Below, piece by piece: positions 4,303 to 38,090 of a stretch of 64,000 nucleotides of DNA. Made by a program: the position numbers and the translations under genes. Each line of letters starts with the position of its first letter. The first letter of the stretch is position 1. Below the pieces are notes generated by a model. The model was not told where the DNA came from. It searched no databases and worked only from the letters and a program-made list of their open reading frames with translations. This DNA comes from a virus (taxonomy: Duplodnaviria; Heunggongvirae; Uroviricota; Caudoviricetes), in IMG/VR virus record IMGVR_UViG_2939127364_000001; one strand, 5' to 3'.

Positions 4303-4660
4303 AACCTTTCTTCATCAACTCGCGTTTAATTTCATCGGTACGCATCGTGACATCGGCAGCAGTGATCGCCTCGTTCAGCTTCACGATGTCCTCGATTTCC
4401 TGCGGTGTCTTCTCCGCAAGATGGAAAATAGCAGCACGAATCACATCAGAGCGGGTGAATTTCTCAAAGCGAGGGATGAACTTCATCATCTCCAGCAGTT
4501 CGAAGTATTCGTCTTCCAGTGACATTGTGCGGCTTTTGATTTTCTCTTTGCCACGAGTCGGGCGTCCCTGTGGTCTGACTGGTTGGCGCAAAGGAGTTGT
4601 GTTCTTAGCCGGTGCATCAGGCTCTTTGCGCTTTGCTAGGTCTCCCATTCTCATGGACAT
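4301..4660 (-). CDS. Small partition partner protein (ParG/RHH-like centromere-binding candidate)
   Basis: 119 aa, basic N-terminus, immediately downstream of and overlapping parA by 1 nt. Confidence 0.45.
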   Translation of the reverse strand: MSMRMGDLAKRKEPDAPAKNTTPLRQPVRPQGRPTRGKEKIKSRTMSLEDEYFELLEMMKFIPRFEKFTRSDVIRAAIFHLAEKTPQEIEDIVKLNEAITAADVTMRTDEIKRELMKKG

Positions 4661-5325
4661 TATTCTTCCTCCAGACTCAAGATGTAATCTACAAACTCTT
4701 CGAACTCGGCTTCTGCCTTCTTATCGCGTTCAGCGCCAGTCATTTCAAAGATAGAACGACCTGCCTCTTCCGCATCGTCATAAACGTTACGGTTGTACAG
4801 GTTAACCGGCGCAGCCTCGATGCCGAAAGTTTCGACAATTTCCTTCGCGGCCAGAATACGTGATACCTGGGAAGGCAATGACGGACACTGGTTTATTACC
4901 GCGCGGATCTTAACTTTCTCGTTCACATTGCGAACGTTGTCGATAATCGGGTCGATATCACGCAGAGATTTCAAATCACGACGTTTAGGGCGCAGCGGGA
5001 TGATGATTACATCAGCCATAAGCATCGCCAGACGCTGAATTTCGGAGTCAAAGCCACCAGCATCTACCACTACAAACTCAGCTCTACCCTGAAGCGATTT
5101 TAGGTGCTTAATGATGTCATCCTGAACGTATGCAAAAGGAATCAGCTCAAGGTCTTCGTTCTGTCGACGGTCTTCACACCAGCTCGTTGTCGTGCGCTGA
5201 ATATCTATATCGGTAATATAAACCTTCTTCTTCTTTTTGACTTTCAGGCAAACGGCAATTTGCTGGGCAACGGTGGATTTGCCAGGCCCGCCCTTTGTGC
5301 CGCCAACCACAAAGATCTTGGTCAT
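4660..5325 (-). CDS. parA: ParA-family partition ATPase (small type Ib-like)
   Basis: 221 aa; deviant Walker A GGTKGGPGKST at the N-terminus; motif A 36 nt upstream. Confidence 0.75.
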   Translation of the reverse strand: MTKIFVVGGTKGGPGKSTVAQQIAVCLKVKKKKKVYITDIDIQRTTTSWCEDRRQNEDLELIPFAYVQDDIIKHLKSLQGRAEFVVVDAGGFDSEIQRLAMLMADVIIIPLRPKRRDLKSLRDIDPIIDNVRNVNEKVKIRAVINQCPSLPSQVSRILAAKEIVETFGIEAAPVNLYNRNVYDDAEEAGRSIFEMTGAERDKKAEAEFEEFVDYILSLEEE

Positions 5326-5360
5326 TGGAGAGTTCCCTTTGCGTATATAATTATCGTCTG

Positions 5361-5376
5361 AAACAACTTGTTTTCT
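5361..5376. promoter_or_regulatory. Motif A upstream of parA
   Basis: aaacaacttgttttct. Confidence 0.4.
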
Positions 5377-5604
5377 TATATGTGATATAGCCTAAATGCC
5401 TACGGCTGCGGTGTAAAGGTTAAATGGTAGGTTGTGATTAACAATTGGCAATCATAGCTTGTATTTGTCTGTTGAAAAAAGTAACAATGACCTCTATATT
5501 ACAAGTACGGTGATATGCCGTACACAATTTGATAATGCACACGTAATGGGCTATAGCCTTTTAAAGTAATTTTTGAGTCGAAAACTCAGTTTGAACAGAG
5601 GAGA

Positions 5605-5913
5605 TTGATGGCCTTCCTACATCACGGCCATCAGGAGGAATACATGTCAGCACTAAAAAAGCAGCGCATCGATTTGAGATTAACCGATGACGATAAAAGC
5701 ATCATCGAGGAAGCTGCCGCAATGTCTAACCAGAGCATTACTCAGTTTATGGTTAGCAGTGCATCTGAACGTGCCGTGAAAGTTATAGAGCAACACCGTA
5801 GACTAGTTCTGAATGAAGAATCCTGGAATCTGGTTATGGACGCTATAAGCAATCCTCCGGCACCGAACGACAAGCTGAAACGAGCTGCTGATCGTCTGAA
5901 AAGCATGGAGTAG
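5605..5913 (+). CDS. DUF1778-type RHH antitoxin (AtaR/TacA-like)
   Basis: About 90-102 aa, ...KKQRIDLRLTDDDKSIIEEAA..., directly upstream of and 8 nt from a GNAT toxin-like gene; true start may be the internal ATG near 5644. Confidence 0.6.
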   Translation: MMAFLHHGHQEEYMSALKKQRIDLRLTDDDKSIIEEAAAMSNQSITQFMVSSASERAVKVIEQHRRLVLNEESWNLVMDAISNPPAPNDKLKRAADRLKSME

Positions 5914-5920
5914 TTTACTC

Positions 5921-6442
5921 GTGAGCAATACAACGATAGAGATTTTCTCTGGAGAGAAAGATTATGATCTAAACGGTTTTGATTGCGGCGAAGAGTCACT
6001 AAACGCCTTTTTAGCCAACCACTTAAAAAGGCAGCATGAGGGAAAAATTCTTCGTGCTTATGTGCTTTGCACTCAAGAAGAAAGGCCAAAAGTGTTAGGA
6101 TATTACACTTTGTCAGGTAGTTGTTTTGAAAAGGAGTCCTTACCTTCAAGAAGCAAACAAAAGAAGGTTCCTTATCGGAATGTTCCAAGTGTTACTTTGG
6201 GTAGGCTGGCTTTGGACAAGTCCCTTCAAGGTCAAGGATTTGGCTCAATGCTTGTAACACATGCAATGCGCGTTGTGTACAATGCATCTCTTGCTGTAGG
6301 CATTCATGGACTTTTCGTTGAGGCGTTAAATGACAAAGCCAAGGCGTTTTATAAAAGTTTAGACTTTATCCAGCTGGTTGGTAACAACGAGCGTTCTTTG
6401 TTCTATCCTACAAAATCTATCGAAAAATTGTTCGAAGAATAA
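5921..6442 (+). CDS. GNAT-family acetyltransferase toxin (AtaT/TacT-like)
   Basis: 173 aa, GTG start; GNAT core LGRLALDKSLQGQGFGSMLV; classic antitoxin-then-toxin arrangement. Confidence 0.65.
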   Translation: MSNTTIEIFSGEKDYDLNGFDCGEESLNAFLANHLKRQHEGKILRAYVLCTQEERPKVLGYYTLSGSCFEKESLPSRSKQKKVPYRNVPSVTLGRLALDKSLQGQGFGSMLVTHAMRVVYNASLAVGIHGLFVEALNDKAKAFYKSLDFIQLVGNNERSLFYPTKSIEKLFEE

Positions 6443-6445
6443 TGT

Positions 6446-6467
6446 GTTCCCCTCATTTGAGGGGAAC
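6446..6467. terminator. Bidirectional hairpin between convergent toxin gene and lysis-like cassette
   Basis: gttcccctc-attt-gaggggaac, perfect 9-bp stem. Confidence 0.4.
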
Positions 6468-6610
6468 TTCGACATCACCAACCACAAACCCTCTCTCCCA
6501 TCGTATTGTGAAAAAGGATTTGGCGTTCGGTTTCTTCAGTCATTACATCATTATTGCTGATATAGATAGGCTCAGCCCCATCGCAGAACAACACGCTGGT
6601 GGTTTGTGGT

Positions 6611-6862
6611 TTAATGACGCACCCACTTATCATACAACTCACGATGAACGGCAGAAGCATCTTTCTGACGTATTTTACTGCTCGTCTCATTCACCACTTT
6701 CACTGTGTTTTGAAGTCGTTTTCTGTCTTCCTGTTTTGCCTTCTCTTCCATTGCTCGTCGCGCCGCATTCCCGCCCATCGTGTAAGCGCCGACAAAAACG
6801 AAAAGAACGGCAGCCAGCGTAATCAAAGCAACTTTTAGCTTTGTCATCAGGCTGCCTAGCAT
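6611..6862 (-). CDS. Small membrane protein with N-terminal TM segment and charged coiled-coil tail (spanin/holin-like candidate)
   Basis: 83 aa; hydrophobic LKVALITLAAVLFVFVGAYT followed by KAKQEDRKRLQ. Confidence 0.4.
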   Translation of the reverse strand: MLGSLMTKLKVALITLAAVLFVFVGAYTMGGNAARRAMEEKAKQEDRKRLQNTVKVVNETSSKIRQKDASAVHRELYDKWVRH

Positions 6863-6863
6863 A

Positions 6864-7583
6864 TTAGACCATCCCTTTCTGGTGTCTTCTTACCTGCGAC
6901 CAGGCAATGAATCCGGCCACAACAATAGTGGCAATGCCGAAGATGATGCGTACTGTATCCCCGCTAGAGATATGACCTTGTGCCTTATCCATAGCAGCGG
7001 AAACCTGCGGCATAACATCGGCCAGCTGCGCCAGACCAATACCTGCTGTAACAGTTGCGCCTGCGGTTTCTTTAGTTACAGGAACAGCCTTCACGGTTTT
7101 CACCGGCTTAACAACGCCAGCTCGACGCAGACCTTCCTCAATAACTTCTGCCGCATACCAGGTGTTCAGCGTTTTTAGCGGGCCTCGGCCATTCTCGTGG
7201 CGAATGATTGCCTCAACCAAAGGTCGAAGGATGTCGTAATCATGCAGATCGATGATCATGTCTGCGGTTACACCAACGGCTTTAGACACCTCATTAATGT
7301 AGGCGTCAGTATTGTTTTCATTCGGCGGTGCCCAGCGTTCAATAACTTCACGAATGGTATCGATACTTGTGCCGTCTTTTGCGCGACGTTTATCGTGGTA
7401 GGTAATTAGAGTCACCGCCAGCGCACGAATCCCCCAAACAGGGTCTTTAAACGTGCAAAAGCGCGGTTCGTCTGGATTCGCAACCAGACCTTGCCACGGT
7501 GATCCTTTATCAAGATTACCGGGGTTATTATTACGAATGCCTCTCGGGGTCTTCATCCTTGATCTCCTGTTATTGCAGTCCAC
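6864..7583 (-). CDS. Hypothetical protein with C-terminal TM anchor (possible cell-wall-active or lysis protein; family not recognised)
   Basis: 239 aa; N-terminal RGIRNNNPGNLDKGSPWQG motif, C-terminal hydrophobic IIFGIATIVVAGFIAW; likely true start at internal ATG ~7556. Confidence 0.45.
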   Translation of the reverse strand: MDCNNRRSRMKTPRGIRNNNPGNLDKGSPWQGLVANPDEPRFCTFKDPVWGIRALAVTLITYHDKRRAKDGTSIDTIREVIERWAPPNENNTDAYINEVSKAVGVTADMIIDLHDYDILRPLVEAIIRHENGRGPLKTLNTWYAAEVIEEGLRRAGVVKPVKTVKAVPVTKETAGATVTAGIGLAQLADVMPQVSAAMDKAQGHISSGDTVRIIFGIATIVVAGFIAWSQVRRHQKGMV

Positions 7584-7905
7584 TTTTTACGCCATACGCG
7601 GCTAACCCCAAAAGCAGTGCGGTAATAATGAACGACGTTATTTTAGAAACAATGCCGCCAAAGAACCCACTTGAGATGGAATCTAACCGGTTAAGGAGTT
7701 TGTCCAGATTGGAGTGTTGAATACTATGTTGCGCCGGGGTCATATCACCAAAGTAGGTTTTCAGCTGATCATTGACCTCCTGGCCAATTTCTTCACGTAG
7801 CTCTTTACCTAATTTGCCAACAACCTCCCGAGCAACGATCGCGGCAATACGCTCAACTTGCTCTGTTGTAACGCCCGCCATCTCGTTCGACATGTTTTCC
7901 TCCAT
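7570..7905 (-). CDS. Small protein with C-terminal TM segment (holin-like candidate)
   Basis: 111 aa; C-terminus KITSFIITALLLGLAAYGV. Confidence 0.45.
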   Translation of the reverse strand: MEENMSNEMAGVTTEQVERIAAIVAREVVGKLGKELREEIGQEVNDQLKTYFGDMTPAQHSIQHSNLDKLLNRLDSISSGFFGGIVSKITSFIITALLLGLAAYGVKSGLQ

Positions 7906-7923
7906 GAAAAGTCAAATCGGGAT

Positions 7924-7947
7924 GGCGGTTTTATATCATAAAACGCC
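7924..7947 (-). terminator. Hairpin after the tail fibre genes
   Basis: ggcggtttta-tatca-taaaacgcc; on the - strand followed by a U-rich stretch. Confidence 0.35.
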
Positions 7948-7956
7948 CACACTTGG

Positions 7957-7976
7957 TAGGTAAGTACTTACACATG
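7957..7976. promoter_or_regulatory. Motif B, perfect palindrome GTAAGTACTTAC
   Basis: ggtaggtaagtacttacaca, overlapping the stop of the Gly-rich protein gene. Confidence 0.35.
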
Positions 7977-8813
7977 AGCGCCGTAAATTGCCCCAGCTTT
8001 AGTCCATGTAGGCGCGTTGCCAGTTACGGCTTTACCAGCTGCCCCGCCGCCGTACATTGTCCCCAATCGTCCAGTAGCAGCAGCACCAGCGGCACCTACA
8101 TTACCTCCACTGCCGCATGTGTATTGAACAGCGGTAGAGCCGATCAAATATTGAGCACCAATCCCGGGAGCGGTTAGAGTGCCAGAAGTTGCCGCACGCG
8201 AAGTTGAAGCTGGCGGCCTTGTAGTGTTTGCAACACCAAACGGGCGACCGCCACCACCCATACCACCATCGGCTGAGTTACCGCCGCCACCACCGCCACC
8301 ACCGGCAATAGCGCCGTTATTGGTTATTCTTAAACGAGTCCCAATCCCGTTGTTAATAGCAGTGCCACCGGCAGCACCGCCACCTTTAACGCCACCATTA
8401 CCGCCACGGCCATAGACAGTTACACCTGCGTTGATTACAAGGCTGATATAAGAGTTGGTAAGTGAACTCGGGAAATCTAAACATGGCACGCCGCTACTGG
8501 ACGACACCAGATCCCCTGTAATGGTAACAACGACTGGCGTCGCCCCCTGGGATTTTAAATAGTTGATCAGTGTGTCTTTGTTGTAGTTATGATTCGCACC
8601 GATGCTGTACTGAACTTCTTTAGATCGCCCGGCCATTTGAGACATTGAACCAGCCGCTGGCAGTTGCACCGCCGTTCGAGCCGCACTCATCCATCTCTGG
8701 CCTGTCACACTGACAGCCGAAGACCCAATCCAACCGGGAACACCGACAATTGGCACATCTAATCTCCTTTTTGATGTGAATATCCTGAATTGGTGAGGGT
8801 GGCCCCTCACCAT
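7968..8813 (-). CDS. Glycine-rich tail-fibre-associated protein
   Basis: Gly-rich runs (GGGGGGGG, GGNGGVKGGGAAGG); immediately downstream of the long tail fibre gene; probable GTG start near 8756 after an AGGAG site. Confidence 0.5.
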   Translation of the reverse strand: MVRGHPHQFRIFTSKRRLDVPIVGVPGWIGSSAVSVTGQRWMSAARTAVQLPAAGSMSQMAGRSKEVQYSIGANHNYNKDTLINYLKSQGATPVVVTITGDLVSSSSGVPCLDFPSSLTNSYISLVINAGVTVYGRGGNGGVKGGGAAGGTAINNGIGTRLRITNNGAIAGGGGGGGGNSADGGMGGGGRPFGVANTTRPPASTSRAATSGTLTAPGIGAQYLIGSTAVQYTCGSGGNVGAAGAAATGRLGTMYGGGAAGKAVTGNAPTWTKAGAIYGAHV

Positions 8814-8822
8814 TCACCTTGA

Positions 8823-11800
8823 TTACATTTTTGCCTTCAGTTCGCGCACTTCCTCGCGCAGCTCTTTGACAGCCTCGACCAACATGCCGATAACGCCGTT
8901 GTAGTTAAGACGCAGACGAGGCTCTCCTGACTGATCGTTATGGTCAACCGTTACCAGTTCAGGCTGAACATTCTGGACGTCCTGAGCGATGAGGCCGCCA
9001 GACTGCTCATAACGGCCACAGACCTGAATCTCGTAGAGAACACCTTCGATCTGCTCCAGCTTGTCGAGCGCCCGCTCAATTTTGCGAATATTGCGCTTAC
9101 TACGGCGGTCGGAACGGATGTAAACGTCGTTAAAGCTACCATTCCCACCACAAACCCAAGTGCCGTCATTTTGCAAATAAGCATTAGCATCAGTGCCATT
9201 ATCAGTACGTGAGTTGTTTATCATGTAAAAGCCGAATTGGCTGTTACCTAAACCACCAACAAAAAATTTCCTATCAGCATGGTCTTGTCTTAACAATGCC
9301 TGAGCAGAACTAGTTGATACCTGATTAAGACCAAAAATAACGTTTTGATCTCGCATGCTAATCCAAGAACCTGAGTTGCTGTTAATAGAAAACCTGTTTG
9401 CATATACCCAGGAATTGGTTTTTATATCTCCAGTAACGTTGACAGGCTTATTGCTTTGAACACTCCCACTCGTAAAGCGTAAAACTTGGGTGTTATTGGC
9501 GTAAACATCAAGAATGCCATCTCCATTTTGTTTTAATCCGGTATCGCTATCACCCAGAACAATTGAGTTCCCACCAAGACCATTGACCACACCCAGCCCA
9601 AGACCACCGTCAACAACAGCACCATTGCCCATTGCTACTCTGCCATTAGTGAGATTTACATAAAATGGACGAAGCGAACCTATATCACCATTTTCTCCCT
9701 GGTCTTTTGCTGTCGGGATAAGGTAAAAATTATTTTCGGAACGGCGAAAAATCATCCCGTATGCCGCATCGTAAATGCGCAACCCATCCGTAGAGCGGAT
9801 CTTAAGCTGTCCGGACATCGTACCGCCGCTGTTTTTCATAAATAGCGCATCAATCCAGCCTGCAAATCCCGACTTATTAATGTATAAATTTCCATCATTT
9901 GCCAGAATGCCTCCACCTTGCGTCTTGAGGGGCTGACTCACATTTTGCAGCGTCAGCACACCAGTCATTGTTCCGCCAGAAATCGGTAACGCACCGACAT
10001 CAGCCGCTGTGGGTTTATGAGCAGTGGTATAGACCTGCGCCCAACCAGACCAATTCGCTGTCGAAGTATCACGGCGTGAACGAACATAAACCGGTGCATG
10101 AGCACCATTCGTTCCGCTCCAGCCAATAAGCAACTCGCCCTCACCAGCAGCACTCGCACCTTTCATGTGCAATACGTTGCCATACGTGGTCGGGTAGCTA
10201 TTGTTGTACGCCTCATACATTTGAATGCCAGCAGTGCCTTGAGTAGAGCCACTTAACGCCGTTACGGGCCCGCGTGATACCAATGTATTAATGTTGATAT
10301 CGCCTGAGCCATCAAACTTAACACCATTGATGTTTCTAGCAGTTTGCAACTTCGTAGCTGTTGAAGCATTACCGTTCAAGCTACCATTGATGCCGCCAGT
10401 AACATTGAGTCCATTACCAATGGACACAGCACCGCTGGTATTATTAATTGTAATCGGTCGCAAACCGTTCCATGAACCTAATGTGTCTCCTGATGCTGTT
10501 AGCATGAAATATGTGTTCGACCCATCATTACGGATAAAGAACCCAAAGCTACCGTAAGCAATGCGGAAACCATTTGCATATTTTGAAATGATCTCGCCAG
10601 AAGATGTCAAACCTCCAGATAATGTCCCACCGGTAAGAGGTAATGCACCAACGTCAGATGCTGTTGGTTTATTTTTCGTGTTATATACTCTTCGCCATCC
10701 TGGAGAATAATCTGTGCCATTAAATACATAGATAAACTCCGCATTAGTGAGAGCACCAGAGACACTCGTCGTTGTGGCCGTTGTTATACGGATCGTATAA
10801 TTGTTTGAGCTACTACCGTTATTAAATACCTCTATAACAGCTCCTGCCAATGGAATAACGCCACAACCAGTTTCACTATTTGGTATGGTTGCACTATTGG
10901 CATAGGCCCACGCACATCGAGCAATCCATGACCTTGTGGTAAACGCGCCGTTATTTTGCAATAACGTCACTAACTGTGCTGTTGTTATTGCTCCGCCATT
11001 ACTTCCTGTAGTTAACCAACCAGTAGGAGATGCCGGGCAACCTATATCGGCAGGCCCCAACGATATATTTCTTGTGCCATCAAACGCAATACCGTTGATG
11101 GTTCTTGCGGTTTGCAACTTCGTAGCAGTAGCCGCGTTGCCCGTTGTATTCTGATTACCAGTCGTATTAACACCTGGCAAATTAATATTCGCAGTACCAT
11201 CAAAGCTCACGCCGCCGATAGTTCTTGCCGTCTGAAGTTTTGTAGCAGTTGCAGCATTACCAGTGGTGTTCTGATTACCCGTAGTATTTACACCTGGAAG
11301 GTTGATATTTGCAGAACCGTCGAAACCAACTCCACCGATAGATCTTGCCGTCTGCAATTTCGTTGCTGTACTTGCATTACCATTTAATGTTCCGGTGATC
11401 CCACCAGTAACAGACAACGGACCTGAAACTGTTCCTCCGGTTGTTGGCAGTGCTCCAATATCTAACGGCGTCGGTTTCTGATGTGTGCTATACATCGTAT
11501 AAACAACACCATCGGTAACGCTGGAAGGCTTACTCGCTGAATATGTTGGCGATGTATAAATAGAAACTGTCGCATTTGCAGTACAATCCCAATGGATATT
11601 TACACGAGTCGCATAATTGCCAATCTCAACGTAAATATCATATGTATCGCCGGATGTGTTGATCCAGGCGAAATTCGTTAATCCGACAGCTGTACGCTTC
11701 CACAAAGCACCTGTAATCCCTTTGGGGTTTCCATTGCCTGCTCGTAGAACCAGTTCTGAAATACCTGCCTGATGTGGGGAGCCAACGTTAAACCCTGCGC

Positions 11801-13469
11801 CACCAATCAGGCTTATGTAAACCACGGAACTGGCTTGTGGCATGGTTACAGTTGCCAGCTTGAACCATCCGGCACCACCACTAAAAGACATTGTTATTGA
11901 ATTTAAAGTACCAATATCTTTCGGCGTTAATGTGATATCCGCAGTCAGTGCTTTACCGTTAACTTTTCGGTTAGATGGTACCCTGCCATTCGCATTGTCA
12001 TTGGCTGCTTTAACTGCCTTCGGTGTCGCGGCAAGCGTTTCAGATGTGCTGTTGGTTGCACTACTGAGCTGGACTATCCCCTTTTTCGTCGTGCTCGCAT
12101 CCTCAAGCGCCACGGCGGATGCAATATCCTCTGCCCGTTTTGCCGCTGTCTCAGCGCGCGTTGCTGCGGATTCTGCCGTACTTTTGCTCTGTGCTGCCGC
12201 CGTCGCACTGCCAGCAGCCTCTGTTGCCTTCGTGGATGCCGTCGTGGCGCTGCCCTTCGCTGCTGACGCCTGTCTGGTCGCCTCATCTTTTGAAGCAGAC
12301 GCAGATGATGCCGATGACGCTGCCGAACTGGCGGACGATGCCGCTGCCGTTTTTGAGGATTCTGCACGGGTTTCCGACGCTTTCGCGTTCGTTTCGGATG
12401 TCTTCGCTGCGGAAGCTGACCTCGCTGCTGCGCTGGCCTGTTCAGTGGCTTGGCCAGCCTTCGTTGTGGCTGTTGAAGCAGACGATGCGGCACTTTCTGC
12501 CGATTTTCCGGCGGCGGTGGCACTGGCTGAGGCCTGCCCGGCACTTGTTGACGCGGCACTGGCAGACGACGCAGCCGCTGTTTTTGAGCCTGCCGCAGCC
12601 GAGGCGCTCTGTCCCGCTGCCGTTTCAGAAGACCTGGCGTTCGTCTCGGACGTTTTTGCCGCCTTCGCGGAATTTCCTGCCGCCGTTGCCGAGGAAGCGG
12701 CATTACTGGCGCTCGAGGCTGCGCTCGTTTCTGATGATTTCGCTGCCTCTTTTGAGGCCGCCGCATCCCGGGCTGAGGTGGCAGCTTCTGACGCCTTCGT
12801 GGTCGCGGTGGATGCAGAAGTGGCTGCAGATTTTTGTGACGCTGCAGCATTCGTTTCAGATTTTTTCGCAGCAGTTGCACTCGCACTTGCGGCACTTTGT
12901 GAGGATGCCGCAGCGGATGCACTTTGAGACGCTTGAGAGGCTTTTTCTCCAGCAGTATTGGCGCTTTCTGCTGCTGCGGCAGCACTGGCCGCCGCCTCAC
13001 GAGCTTTGTCGCCAGCAGCATCAATCGCGTCAGTGTTATTTTTATACCACTCAACGTTTTCGTTGTGCTCGTTGACGATCTGCATTAGCGGCTTAACGGT
13101 CACTTCTGTACCGTCTTCACGCTCGATTGTCACCTCATCCAGCGCAGTCAACCAACTGCGTATGGACTTGGAATCAGCCGACATACGCGACATTAGCGCA
13201 GTAAAGCGCGCGCTAAACTGTGTTAAGTCGCCTTCATAGGTCGTAATGATTCGGCACGGAACCTCAGACTGAGTTTCGCCGGTATAAGGTTCTGAGAGAA
13301 CAATATTCGTATCGCTTATTACGCGCTTGATCTCGTACAGCTTATTGTCGGGGCCAATGACGATCATCCCCGGCAACACACCATTAGCTGTTACGTTCCA
13401 GGCTGTCCCTGCCCCAACCAGAGTATTGCTACCCTGTGTAAATGTGATAGTACCTTCCCTGTACCACAT
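8823..13469 (-). CDS. Long side tail fibre (Stf-like) with Ala/Ser-rich region, repeated fibre motifs and a C-terminal chaperone-like domain
   Basis: 1548 aa; long A/S/T-rich low-complexity segment; NASTATKLQTAR...FDG..NI.L repeated at least 4 times; C-terminal SDRRSKRNIRKIERALDKL resembles self-cleaving intramolecular chaperone domains. Confidence 0.8.
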   Translation of the reverse strand: MWYREGTITFTQGSNTLVGAGTAWNVTANGVLPGMIVIGPDNKLYEIKRVISDTNIVLSEPYTGETQSEVPCRIITTYEGDLTQFSARFTALMSRMSADSKSIRSWLTALDEVTIEREDGTEVTVKPLMQIVNEHNENVEWYKNNTDAIDAAGDKAREAAASAAAAAESANTAGEKASQASQSASAAASSQSAASASATAAKKSETNAAASQKSAATSASTATTKASEAATSARDAAASKEAAKSSETSAASSASNAASSATAAGNSAKAAKTSETNARSSETAAGQSASAAAGSKTAAASSASAASTSAGQASASATAAGKSAESAASSASTATTKAGQATEQASAAARSASAAKTSETNAKASETRAESSKTAAASSASSAASSASSASASKDEATRQASAAKGSATTASTKATEAAGSATAAAQSKSTAESAATRAETAAKRAEDIASAVALEDASTTKKGIVQLSSATNSTSETLAATPKAVKAANDNANGRVPSNRKVNGKALTADITLTPKDIGTLNSITMSFSGGAGWFKLATVTMPQASSVVYISLIGGAGFNVGSPHQAGISELVLRAGNGNPKGITGALWKRTAVGLTNFAWINTSGDTYDIYVEIGNYATRVNIHWDCTANATVSIYTSPTYSASKPSSVTDGVVYTMYSTHQKPTPLDIGALPTTGGTVSGPLSVTGGITGTLNGNASTATKLQTARSIGGVGFDGSANINLPGVNTTGNQNTTGNAATATKLQTARTIGGVSFDGTANINLPGVNTTGNQNTTGNAATATKLQTARTINGIAFDGTRNISLGPADIGCPASPTGWLTTGSNGGAITTAQLVTLLQNNGAFTTRSWIARCAWAYANSATIPNSETGCGVIPLAGAVIEVFNNGSSSNNYTIRITTATTTSVSGALTNAEFIYVFNGTDYSPGWRRVYNTKNKPTASDVGALPLTGGTLSGGLTSSGEIISKYANGFRIAYGSFGFFIRNDGSNTYFMLTASGDTLGSWNGLRPITINNTSGAVSIGNGLNVTGGINGSLNGNASTATKLQTARNINGVKFDGSGDININTLVSRGPVTALSGSTQGTAGIQMYEAYNNSYPTTYGNVLHMKGASAAGEGELLIGWSGTNGAHAPVYVRSRRDTSTANWSGWAQVYTTAHKPTAADVGALPISGGTMTGVLTLQNVSQPLKTQGGGILANDGNLYINKSGFAGWIDALFMKNSGGTMSGQLKIRSTDGLRIYDAAYGMIFRRSENNFYLIPTAKDQGENGDIGSLRPFYVNLTNGRVAMGNGAVVDGGLGLGVVNGLGGNSIVLGDSDTGLKQNGDGILDVYANNTQVLRFTSGSVQSNKPVNVTGDIKTNSWVYANRFSINSNSGSWISMRDQNVIFGLNQVSTSSAQALLRQDHADRKFFVGGLGNSQFGFYMINNSRTDNGTDANAYLQNDGTWVCGGNGSFNDVYIRSDRRSKRNIRKIERALDKLEQIEGVLYEIQVCGRYEQSGGLIAQDVQNVQPELVTVDHNDQSGEPRLRLNYNGVIGMLVEAVKELREEVRELKAKM
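10300..11450. repeat. Intragenic direct repeats (~120 bp units) encoding the tail fibre repeat motif
   Basis: Repeated ...ttgcaacttcgtagc... units near 10321, 11090, 11212 and 11332. Confidence 0.5.
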
Positions 13470-36308: not shown

Positions 36309-37208
36309 TTATGCCGGTAAAGCAATTTCTAACGGTTTATCCAAAGGTTGTTTGTCGAATGCCAGCAGTGGCAGCGTGTCAGGCAGCCGACGACCAAAGT
36401 CAGGGTTTCGGTACACACCATACAACGGAGACGTAAAGCTCAGGTTGTGAATGTCCTTGAGCAGCTTCACAATGCTGGCCTCGTCCACCAGACTGTCGGC
36501 AATGTCCTGAATCGTCGTGCCACGATTCCGCCCAGCTTTTGCCAGGGAACTGTTCTTGTGGTAGTCCGCTACCAGATCACGCAGTGCACGGCGACGACGA
36601 GACTCGCTCATTGCGAACAACTCTTTGACGATCGCCTCGTTATCACCCGGGTCGGAACGGAAATGGCGCTGGAATACACGCAGTGCACTTTCATAGCTCT
36701 TCGGTCGCTCAGGGCGGATGAACTTAAACCCTGCTTTCATGGCGAAGGGATTGTATTTGCTCATCGAGGACTGGATCTCAATGATTGGCCGGTCGTGCAT
36801 CCTGCTAACCAGGTTAATCATTCGATAGGAGACGCCGACACCGCGGTACTGAGTGTCCACAACGGAACGGCTGATCACCGCAAAGTTGTTGTTCACGTAC
36901 CGCCCCCAATACTGGTTGGCCACGGTGGTATTGGTGGTTGGCTTCAGCTTAGGAAACATGCGATGGCGAGGCGCCAGCAGCAGTTTCGGGTAAGCCATAA
37001 CCACGACGCCCACCAGCCGGTCGTCCAGTTCGCAGCGATAATACGTTGGCGCAAACGGCTTACCATCCGTCTTGTAGTGCAGCGACTTCAGCGCGTGCCA
37101 GTCTTCAACCGTGCCTTTGGTAACGGTCATACGCTCCAGAAAGTCCAGATGACGCGGGAACTCTTCCGGGCGGTAGCGTTTGATGATGATGCCTGTCATG
37201 TCGATCAC
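36309..37208 (-). CDS. GNAT-domain protein with C-terminal extension (hypothetical)
   Basis: 299 aa; GNAT motif-A-like VVDTQYRGVGVSYRMINLV and motif-B-like NPFAMKAGFKF; 4-nt overlap with the upstream 84-aa gene. Confidence 0.5.
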   Translation of the reverse strand: MIDMTGIIIKRYRPEEFPRHLDFLERMTVTKGTVEDWHALKSLHYKTDGKPFAPTYYRCELDDRLVGVVVMAYPKLLLAPRHRMFPKLKPTTNTTVANQYWGRYVNNNFAVISRSVVDTQYRGVGVSYRMINLVSRMHDRPIIEIQSSMSKYNPFAMKAGFKFIRPERPKSYESALRVFQRHFRSDPGDNEAIVKELFAMSESRRRRALRDLVADYHKNSSLAKAGRNRGTTIQDIADSLVDEASIVKLLKDIHNLSFTSPLYGVYRNPDFGRRLPDTLPLLAFDKQPLDKPLEIALPA

Positions 37209-37459
37209 CTACGCTCGATATTGGCATTGATGAAGTCCAGGCGAAGCGATTCCATCGCCCCAACCATGACGTATGGACGCCCACCGTTATGCCAGCAATC
37301 CAGCACACTGCCGTCGTTGTTGATCATCAGCAGTGCCAGGCTCTGGCTTTTGCCTTCTCTGGCGTACTGGAGTGCTTCTTCCAGCAGGCGGATGACTTCA
37401 ACGTTGTTGTTGTCAGCCTCTTTCGATGGCTTCAGCTCTACGATCTTCAAATCAGGCAT
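37205..37459 (-). CDS. Small hypothetical protein (operon member)
   Basis: 84 aa; overlaps both neighbours (translational coupling). Confidence 0.4.
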   Translation of the reverse strand: MPDLKIVELKPSKEADNNNVEVIRLLEEALQYAREGKSQSLALLMINNDGSVLDCWHNGGRPYVMVGAMESLRLDFINANIERR

Positions 37460-38090
37460 ATTCCACCTTCACGCGTTCTTTGTAGTGCTTGGTGATCTGC
37501 ATATCCGGGCGCAGCGCGTTCTTCAGGTCTTCGTGAGTCGTCGCCACCATTACCGTCGCACCAACCTTTCGAGCGGCACGCTGGAGGTTAGATGCCACAA
37601 CCTGAGCGGTTACACGGTCGAGAACAGCGCCGAACTCGTCAGCAGCCCACACTTTAGCGCCTGACTCAATCAGTTTGGCAATCTTGAGACGATATTTCTG
37701 ACCGTCTGACATTTCAGAAGGCTTGCGAACAAACAGATATGCATCGTTCAGACCAGCCATAGATAACAACCCAAGCGCATCACTGGTAGTTTTGCCCAGT
37801 TGGTCAATGACGTTAACCTCATTATCGAAGGTAAAATCATCGATGGAGGCTACAGACAGCCCTTCATCCTTCATCTGTCGTTGCAACTCGCGCAGCACAA
37901 CGGATTTGCCGGATCCGGATTGGCCGGTGATGTACACCACATCGCCCTGCTTCACTTCCAGCTCCAGATTGTCGTAAAGCGTCCACTCTTTTTCGTCCAG
38001 ACCAAGCCCGAACGACTCAGCGATTTCCAACGTGCGCGTGGTTTTATTTACGCGTGTCTGAAACGATACGTTGATGATGTATTTGCTCAT
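37452..38090 (-). CDS. Small ABC-type ATPase (nucleotide-binding domain only)
   Basis: 212 aa; Walker A GQSGSGKS, signature-like SDGQKYR, Walker B VWAADEFG, H-loop TTHE. Confidence 0.6.
   Translation of the reverse strand: MSKYIINVSFQTRVNKTTRTLEIAESFGLGLDEKEWTLYDNLELEVKQGDVVYITGQSGSGKSVVLRELQRQMKDEGLSVASIDDFTFDNEVNVIDQLGKTTSDALGLLSMAGLNDAYLFVRKPSEMSDGQKYRLKIAKLIESGAKVWAADEFGAVLDRVTAQVVASNLQRAARKVGATVMVATTHEDLKNALRPDMQITKHYKERVKVEYA

Follow-up and report, generated by a model that had tools for sequence, protein, structure and literature searches.

A four-gene block in an SSU5-like phage-plasmid is a probable lysis module with an Enc34/M4Lys-type endolysin, a spanin pair and a tail-anchored phrog_5093 protein

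The endolysin family considered here is known from ORF39 of Hafnia phage Enc34 and from M4Lys of Salmonella phage BSPM4, and papers of 2020-2022 describe its muralytic activity, its cleavage products and a crystal structure (PMC7143992, PMC8943055). The catalytic domain of Enc34 ORF39 (PDB 7Q47; NCBI domain PHA02564) lyses outer-membrane-permeabilised E. coli, P. aeruginosa and H. alvei; it is all-helical and resembles a permuted alpha-lobe of lysozyme, with Glu131 superimposing on the catalytic glutamate of GH73 and GH23 enzymes and with Trp79 and Tyr95 lying in the groove (PMC8943055). The catalytic domain of M4Lys degrades purified peptidoglycan and removes GlcNAc from muropeptides, and full-length M4Lys alone lyses E. 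coli without a holin or the adjacent small gene, without Sec and despite azide; this lysis is lost on removal of the C-terminal transmembrane (TM) domain or even of the last 13 residues (PMC7143992). Lysis by M4Lys independent of a holin was seen only under strong over-expression, and the first gene of the Chi-type cassette, which is unrelated to the first gene described below, was dispensable and slightly slowed lysis (PMC7143992).

We analysed a stretch of 64,000 nucleotides (the window), in which a preliminary description had noticed three membrane-associated proteins resembling a holin, an endolysin and a spanin. Positions 6300-8900 are 99% identical to Escherichia phage Cyrano and 82% identical to Salmonella phage SSU5, and for the first 25 kb matches at 96-97% come from numerous plasmids of E. 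coli, each about 110 kb long; judged by these DNA matches, the window is part of an E. coli SSU5-like phage-plasmid. The three consecutive minus-strand open reading frames are all present, at 7570-7905 (111 aa), 6864-7583 (239 aa, GTG start) and 6611-6862 (83 aa). A Kyte-Doolittle scan gave one hydrophobic segment for each product, and the membrane features proposed earlier were recovered, namely a C-terminal TM segment in the 111-aa protein, a C-terminal anchor besides an N-terminal motif in the 239-aa protein, and an N-terminal TM segment in the 83-aa protein. Their position after the tail fibre genes was likewise described correctly: 5' of the cassette lie a gp38-type adhesin gene (7968-8813, minus strand; Pfam GP38, E 8e-70) and, 5' of the adhesin, the gene of a tail fibre of 1548 aa (8823-13469, minus strand).

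While the length of 83 aa stands, the two other reading frames had been over-extended. For the first gene ATG 7893 is the most likely start, giving 107 rather than 111 aa, because GGAGGA is found five bases 5' of this ATG. By the same reasoning, with AGGAG seven bases 5' of ATG 7556, the product of the second gene most likely comprises 230 and not 239 aa. Cyrano and SSU5 annotate the same two lengths. A lambda-like dual-start motif in the first gene (MEENMSNEM) was considered but is not relied on, as its first ATG falls within the Shine-Dalgarno sequence serving the second and a long distance separates the N-terminus from the TM segment.

The cassette consists of four genes, all on the minus strand and placed after the adhesin and tail fibre genes: the first gene, an endolysin gene, an i-spanin gene and an o-spanin gene. 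The last of these (6475-6690) reaches beyond the left boundary drawn in the preliminary description and had been missed. The block is contiguous and kept in 80 IMG/VR loci of the SSU5 group, with substitutions and no disruption, so that its reading frames are real genes and not chance occurrences. The endolysin gene directly follows the first gene in all 80 loci, and both spanins were detected after the endolysin in 77 of them; two of the exceptions (L040, L068) end just after or within the endolysin gene, and in the third (L032) the o-spanin only was detected. Eight nucleotides past the o-spanin stop codon a terminator-like hairpin with a match to the consensus (6446-6467, minus strand; 9-bp stem with 6 G-C pairs) sits between the cassette and a convergent toxin gene, which belongs to a TacA/GNAT toxin-antitoxin pair located beyond the cassette, as in Cyrano.

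The same four genes occur in the same order in Cyrano (CYRAN_22-25) and SSU5 (SSU5_026-030), where they are labelled holin, endolysin, Rz and Rz1; the cassette is already known and annotated. SSU5 differs from the window by three extra genes (Cor, a membrane protein and an outer membrane protein) between adhesin and cassette, and by two other genes after the cassette where the window and Cyrano carry the TacA/GNAT pair. The Rz1 call in Cyrano (120 nt) begins 3' of the lipobox and is probably too short. Literature searches found no experiments on SSU5-type lysis genes. We regard the block, with a probability of about 0.9, as a late-expressed lysis module of four genes in an SSU5-like phage-plasmid, equipped with an Enc34/M4Lys-type glycosidase, a spanin pair and a first gene whose product most likely controls the membrane step. 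None of our observations speaks against a lysis module.

The central protein (6864-7556, minus strand; 230 aa) is, by its sequence, a member of the known and characterised Enc34/M4Lys (PHA02564) endolysin family. The preliminary description had considered that it may be an unrecognised wall-active enzyme, and the enzyme could not be placed at that time because Pfam has no model for its catalytic domain. Searches of Pfam and NCBIfam indeed returned nothing significant for this protein; we rejected novelty on this ground, as the missing match reflects a gap in those libraries, and PHROGs and PDB identify an endolysin. The profile searches suggested earlier assign the central protein to phrog_873 ('endolysin', E 9e-89) and the 83-aa protein to phrog_1026, while the search of PDB sequences gave 7Q47 ('Endolysin', E 4e-54 over residues 10-160 of the 239-aa reading frame), and the protein is 99.6% identical to the 'Endolysin' of Cyrano. 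The cassette reveals no new wall-active enzyme. The family assignment is based on identities of 58.6% to the Enc34 ORF39 catalytic domain (BLASTP) and of 55.6% to the endolysin of the Chi-like phage FSL SP-088, the latter over the full length including the membrane domain, and on the retention of the groove and catalytic residues: Trp79, Tyr95 and Glu131 of Enc34 align with W75 (7332-7334), Y86 (7299-7301) and the predicted catalytic E121 (7194-7196) of the window endolysin (minus strand, 230-aa numbering).

According to the alignment to the 7Q47 sequence, the catalytic domain covers residues 1-151 (7104-7556, minus strand) and includes the RGIRNNNPGN motif; the reading frame of 239 aa carries RGIRNNNPGNLDKGSPWQG near its N-terminus. 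The Kyte-Doolittle scan places a C-terminal membrane domain at 6891-7064 (minus strand). Its proximal helix (about residues 165-189; 6990-7064) is weakly hydrophobic and its distal TM helix (about residues 204-222 of 230; 6891-6947) strongly so, and the latter leads into the basic tail RRHQKGMV. The motif SSGD-VRI of the membrane domain is common to the window and the Chi-like endolysins. Since the N-terminus is hydrophilic and the sole strong hydrophobic stretch is C-terminal, the protein has neither an N-terminal signal nor a signal-arrest-release (SAR) helix. The window endolysin thus shares with Enc34 ORF39 and M4Lys the RGIRNNNPGN-type N-terminal motif, the Trp, Tyr and catalytic Glu, the two-part C-terminal membrane domain with basic tail and the location of its gene between a small membrane protein and the spanins. 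It differs in that it belongs to a phage-plasmid of about 110 kb and not to a Chi-like siphovirus of about 60 kb, and in that the two short Enc34 loops KKNGV and SPEDYD are absent. By homology with Enc34 ORF39 and M4Lys, the window endolysin would degrade peptidoglycan, and lysis would depend on its membrane domain.

The two genes downstream are predicted to encode a two-component spanin of overlapped architecture. The i-spanin (6611-6862, minus strand; 83 aa) matches the Rz-like spanins of phrog_1026 (E 2e-24) and is called 'Rz spanin' in the Cyrano annotation; its N-terminal TM segment (about residues 8-28, Kyte-Doolittle) is followed by a remainder rich in K, R and E, a charged helical periplasmic domain. 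The o-spanin gene (6475-6690, minus strand), which is read in a different frame, shares sequence with the 3' end of the i-spanin gene, and the same overlap is seen in the IMG/VR loci. It encodes an Rz1-like lipoprotein of 71 aa, or of 61 aa if translation starts from ATG 6660, which matches phrog_1275 (E 5e-25) and is 40.6% identical to the Chi-like o-spanin (E 1e-17). Its lipobox is I-S-G-C24 (...MLLPFIVSCMISG-C-VIKPQ...; Cys24 codon 6619-6621), and the mature protein has 48 aa with two further Cys. Directly behind Cys24 stands Val and not Asp, the residue that causes retention in the inner membrane; by the Lol +2 rule this is consistent with sorting of the predicted lipoprotein to the outer membrane. 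Kongari et al. 2018 (PMC6139136) placed the SSU5 o-spanin in a 'Chi' family and listed the SSU5 i-spanin as a singleton.

The Chi-like cassettes (Chivirus phages such as FSL SP-088, Enc34 and BSPM4) have a homologous endolysin and o-spanin, the same gene order and the same placement after virion genes, and their i-spanin is of the same size as that of the window with weak similarity. They differ in the first gene, which encodes a protein of 113 aa with a central or N-proximal TM segment in the Chi-like phages and the 107-aa phrog_5093 protein with its C-terminal TM segment in the window; no similarity was found between the two. In its overall logic the block resembles lambda S-R-Rz-Rz1 and the SAR-endolysin systems of phages P1 (Lyz) and 21 (R): a trigger in the membrane is combined with a wall hydrolase and a two-component spanin. 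The spanin genes of the window overlap and are not embedded. With the SAR endolysins P1 Lyz and phage 21 R the window-type endolysin has in common that the enzyme is tethered to the membrane and can lyse without a large-hole holin (discussed in PMC8943055). In contrast to the lambda and SAR systems, the anchor is C-terminal instead of an N-terminal signal-arrest-release helix, export is apparently Sec-independent, as seen for M4Lys (PMC7143992), and the catalytic fold is a permuted variant of lysozyme that lacks the beta-lobe.

The resemblance to a holin/endolysin/spanin arrangement noted earlier is borne out for the endolysin and the i-spanin, while the holin is its least supported part. The first gene (7570-7893, minus strand, in the reading frame extending to 7905) encodes a tail-anchored membrane protein of 107 aa, the only PHROGs family of which is phrog_5093 (E 2e-68), annotated as 'unknown function'. 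Pfam and NCBIfam gave no match, and no homology to any characterised holin was found in Pfam, NCBIfam or PHROGs; the label 'holin' in Cyrano and SSU5 was given by position alone. The single hydrophobic stretch is C-terminal (about residues 80-103 of 107) and is followed by five residues only, KSGLQ. A highly charged hydrophilic C-terminal tail past the last TM segment is a typical feature of holins, and the protein has no such tail.

A word-indexed search with the 107-aa protein returned close SSU5-like relatives only, all 'hypothetical', and a tblastn search of deposited phages with distant family members led again to the SSU5 group and nothing beyond. The profile search of 1.84 billion representative proteins yielded 55 proteins, all of them small members of the same uncharacterised family, and most of the full-length ones measure 94-143 aa. 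The 25 relatives retrieved have one architecture, in which an Ala-rich N-terminal helix with many charged residues is followed by a turn and by a second helix that leads into the C-terminal TM segment. This second helix opens with FGDMTxxQHxxQHxR...D, and G49, H56 and H60 do not vary at all across the alignment of 26 sequences (25% mean identity), in which D71 is nearly invariant. All 26 aligned sequences match phrog_5093 and no Pfam family. With this alignment AlphaFold2 predicted two long helices, at residues 10-48 and 53-103 (pLDDT 86).

Outside the SSU5 group the family was found in other lysis cassettes. In two loci (L007, L090) the phrog_5093 member is followed by a Peptidase_M15_3 endolysin (Pfam E 1e-15; phrog_894 E 2e-26) and a small hydrophobic protein, while in four others (L088 from an alphaproteobacterial MAG, and L091-L093) it precedes, in this order, a three-TM protein, an SLT-like endolysin (phrog_669, E 2e-21), an i-spanin and an o-spanin. 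In locus L006 two small membrane proteins come after the family member, and there is no endolysin within 3.5 kb. Genome and metagenome scans for relatives of the first gene gave one locus each, one of which (L089) ends right after the gene; the locus search with sub-alignment A6 of the family gave no loci. Because the family heads cassettes with Enc34-type, M15 peptidase and SLT-like endolysins, its link to endolysins of three unrelated kinds speaks for a function in lysis. Another small hydrophobic protein is part of the cassette in all five arrangements outside the SSU5 group, and for this reason both a holin and an antiholin or regulator come into consideration; the first-gene product may be a holin or a regulator of lysis or its timing.

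It is rather unlikely, but has to be weighed seriously, that the block is a lysis module in which the 107-aa protein acts as an antiholin or lysis-timing regulator or as a partner of the endolysin membrane domain, and in which the membrane lesion would arise from the C-terminal TM domain of the endolysin itself. The small hydrophobic proteins that accompany distant phrog_5093 members are possible holins in such a scheme, and the three-TM protein of the L088/L091 type indeed has a weak match to the holin family phrog_8226 (E 1e-3). The missing charged tail of the 107-aa protein points in the same direction, as does the most conserved feature of its soluble part, the H-x3-H motif. This motif lies on the N-terminal side of the TM segment, which would be cytoplasmic if the protein is tail-anchored with its N-terminus inside, and its position and conservation suggest a role in binding or sensing. 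The lysis of cells by M4Lys alone and the dispensability of the Chi-type first gene fit as well, but M4Lys did so only when strongly over-expressed (PMC7143992). Against this scheme, the cassette of SSU5-like elements has no small membrane protein besides the 107-aa protein, which occupies the canonical holin position there, and its TM segment is its best-conserved part within the SSU5 group. Somewhat short of an even chance, we tentatively consider phrog_5093 an undescribed class of lysis-cassette proteins, either holins of a new type or regulators of lysis timing, defined by a tail-anchored two-helix architecture with G...H-x3-H...D N-terminal of the TM segment and by its place at the head of cassettes with three unrelated endolysin types. 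In SSU5-like elements its product could be the gate for membrane passage of the C-terminally anchored endolysin.

For the lysis module as we read it, with the first-gene product controlling the membrane step, we propose the following course. As the gene order suggests, late transcription would run from the tail fibre genes into the cassette, and the newly made endolysin would be held in the inner membrane by its C-terminal anchor. At the time of lysis the catalytic domain would gain access to the wall, a step for which the anchor is needed in M4Lys (PMC7143992). From its position, the 107-aa protein most likely would trigger or time this membrane step, either as a holin- or pinholin-like protein or as a modulator of the endolysin membrane domain. 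The glycosidase would then cut the glycan strands via E121, as its homology implies, and a complex of the inner-membrane i-spanin and the outer-membrane lipoprotein o-spanin, by family membership, would disrupt the outer membrane.

It is very improbable that the 230-aa protein is instead a virion-associated peptidoglycan hydrolase that serves entry and not release. The tblastn search found the catalytic domain in 793 deposited phage genomes, in 182 of which a single match spans 80% or more of the query, and among the matches listed the full-length ones belong to SSU5-like and Chi-like phages. Elsewhere the domain is found in free-standing endolysins, but also inside internal virion, tape-measure and other structural proteins (phrog_7182, phrog_2276, phrog_992; PDB 9vvp Gp29), and the older NCBI name of the PHA02564 domain is 'virion protein' (PMC7143992). 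The window protein, however, is free-standing, has a C-terminal TM anchor and is encoded by a gene flanked by those of a small membrane protein and of two spanins, and the orthologous architecture of BSPM4 lyses cells from within (PMC7143992). Lysis genes elsewhere in the phage, which would have spoken against the earlier proposal, did not come to light: no further endolysin or holin is annotated in SSU5 (RefSeq annotation, positions 1-100,000 of 103,299), and no second copy of any of the four cassette genes is present within the 64-kb window. Related plasmids encode a 'C40 family peptidase', which we do not count as a rival endolysin because C40 peptidases at such a position in the tail module are usually lambda gpK-like tail proteins. 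Also very improbable is an inactive remnant on a plasmid-like element that no longer lyses its host. In its favour, the entries for most relatives in the plasmid collection merely say non-mobilizable plasmid; against it, the window's copy has four intact reading frames in which no frameshift or stop codon was seen, Shine-Dalgarno sequences precede the first two genes, the block is undisrupted across the 80 loci, and SSU5 and Cyrano were deposited with the same cassette as phage genomes.

For this well-known group of phage-plasmids the cassette would be the lysis module to be expected, with an enzyme of a characterised family. Despite its presence in 793 genomes the PHA02564 endolysin domain will keep being missed by Pfam-based annotation, because there is no Pfam model for it. 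The phrog_5093 family is conserved and linked to several endolysin types and could define a new class of holins or antiholins. It could also help to explain how C-terminally anchored endolysins reach the wall, a question left by the work on Enc34 and M4Lys (PMC8943055, PMC7143992).

The spanin genes are mosaic with respect to the rest of the lysis cassette, as seen in the 80 IMG/VR loci that carry an SSU5-group cassette (L008-L087). Some of these loci share 67% identity with the window in the i-spanin and 96% in the o-spanin, while others show 88% and 63%, respectively. The first gene and the endolysin are retained at 88-100% identity in the loci with mosaic spanins. This pattern suggests recombination within the overlapped spanin pair. 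Two loci, L019 and L020, belong to a divergent SSU5-like lineage, with 60% identity for the first gene and 66% for the endolysin. Both contain ∼1.3 kb of DNA inserted between endolysin and spanin genes (about 4522-5874).

The gene next to the cassette encodes a T-even-type gp38 adhesin (window 7968-8813, - strand; Pfam GP38, E 8e-70, together with Gp38_N), which has glycine-rich motifs and is carried here by a siphovirus-like phage-plasmid. Because the Pfam match begins at residue 22, the start of this ORF may be over-extended. Adhesin identity is highly variable among otherwise near-identical IMG/VR loci, amounting to 49-80% or giving no match. In the window the cassette follows directly after the adhesin (7906-7967), whereas in the SSU5 locus (L002 5400-6650) three additional genes separate the tail-fibre adhesin from the lysis cassette: one codes for an outer-membrane protein, one for a membrane-associated protein and one for a Cor superinfection-exclusion protein. 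With three genes in SSU5 and none in the window, the junction of adhesin and cassette is a variable spot. In the adjacent tail fibre of 1548 aa (window 8823-13469, - strand), residues ∼150-440 make up a very long stretch of low complexity that is rich in Ala and Ser. A motif like 'GNASTATKLQTAR.I.GV.FDG..NI' recurs several times in this protein, and its C-terminus has an intramolecular chaperone-like segment.

On the other side of the cassette, and convergent to it, the + strand (window 5605-6442) encodes a TacA-like antitoxin, which matches Pfam TacA1 at E 9e-26, together with a GNAT acetyltransferase toxin; the two genes are placed between the cassette and parA, the gene of a ParA-type partition ATPase (window 4660-5325, - strand). 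The same pair is present in Escherichia phage Cyrano, annotated as 'KacT', but in SSU5 this place is taken by two hypothetical genes unrelated to the pair. From window position ∼40000 onward, G+C amounts to about 0.39-0.45, down from about 0.47-0.52, and the GC skew, consistently negative before, flattens near the same position, which is probably the border between the - strand virion/lysis module and another module.

The PHA02564 domain of the endolysin (window 6864-7556) is not covered by a Pfam-A model, and tblastn detected it in 793 deposited phage genomes. Its labels among deposited phages vary, including endolysin, structural protein, capsid and scaffold protein, internal virion protein D, protein P5 and hypothetical. 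In PDB entry 9vvp the domain makes up the N-terminal part of Gp29, a chain of 1295 residues. A further SSU5 gene, SSU5_101 (NC_018843 86898-87596, corresponding to 36898-37596 of record part L005), is annotated as 'lysozyme inhibitor LprI family protein'.

The first gene of the cassette (window 7570-7893) belongs to phrog_5093, a family with a mean identity of only 25%, in which G49, H56 and H60 are invariant and D71 is near-invariant. These residues lie in the motif FGDMTxxQHxxQHxR...D (residues 49-71), with the i/i+4 histidines at the beginning of a helix that runs on into the TM segment. The histidine pair may mark a metal- or partner-binding site.
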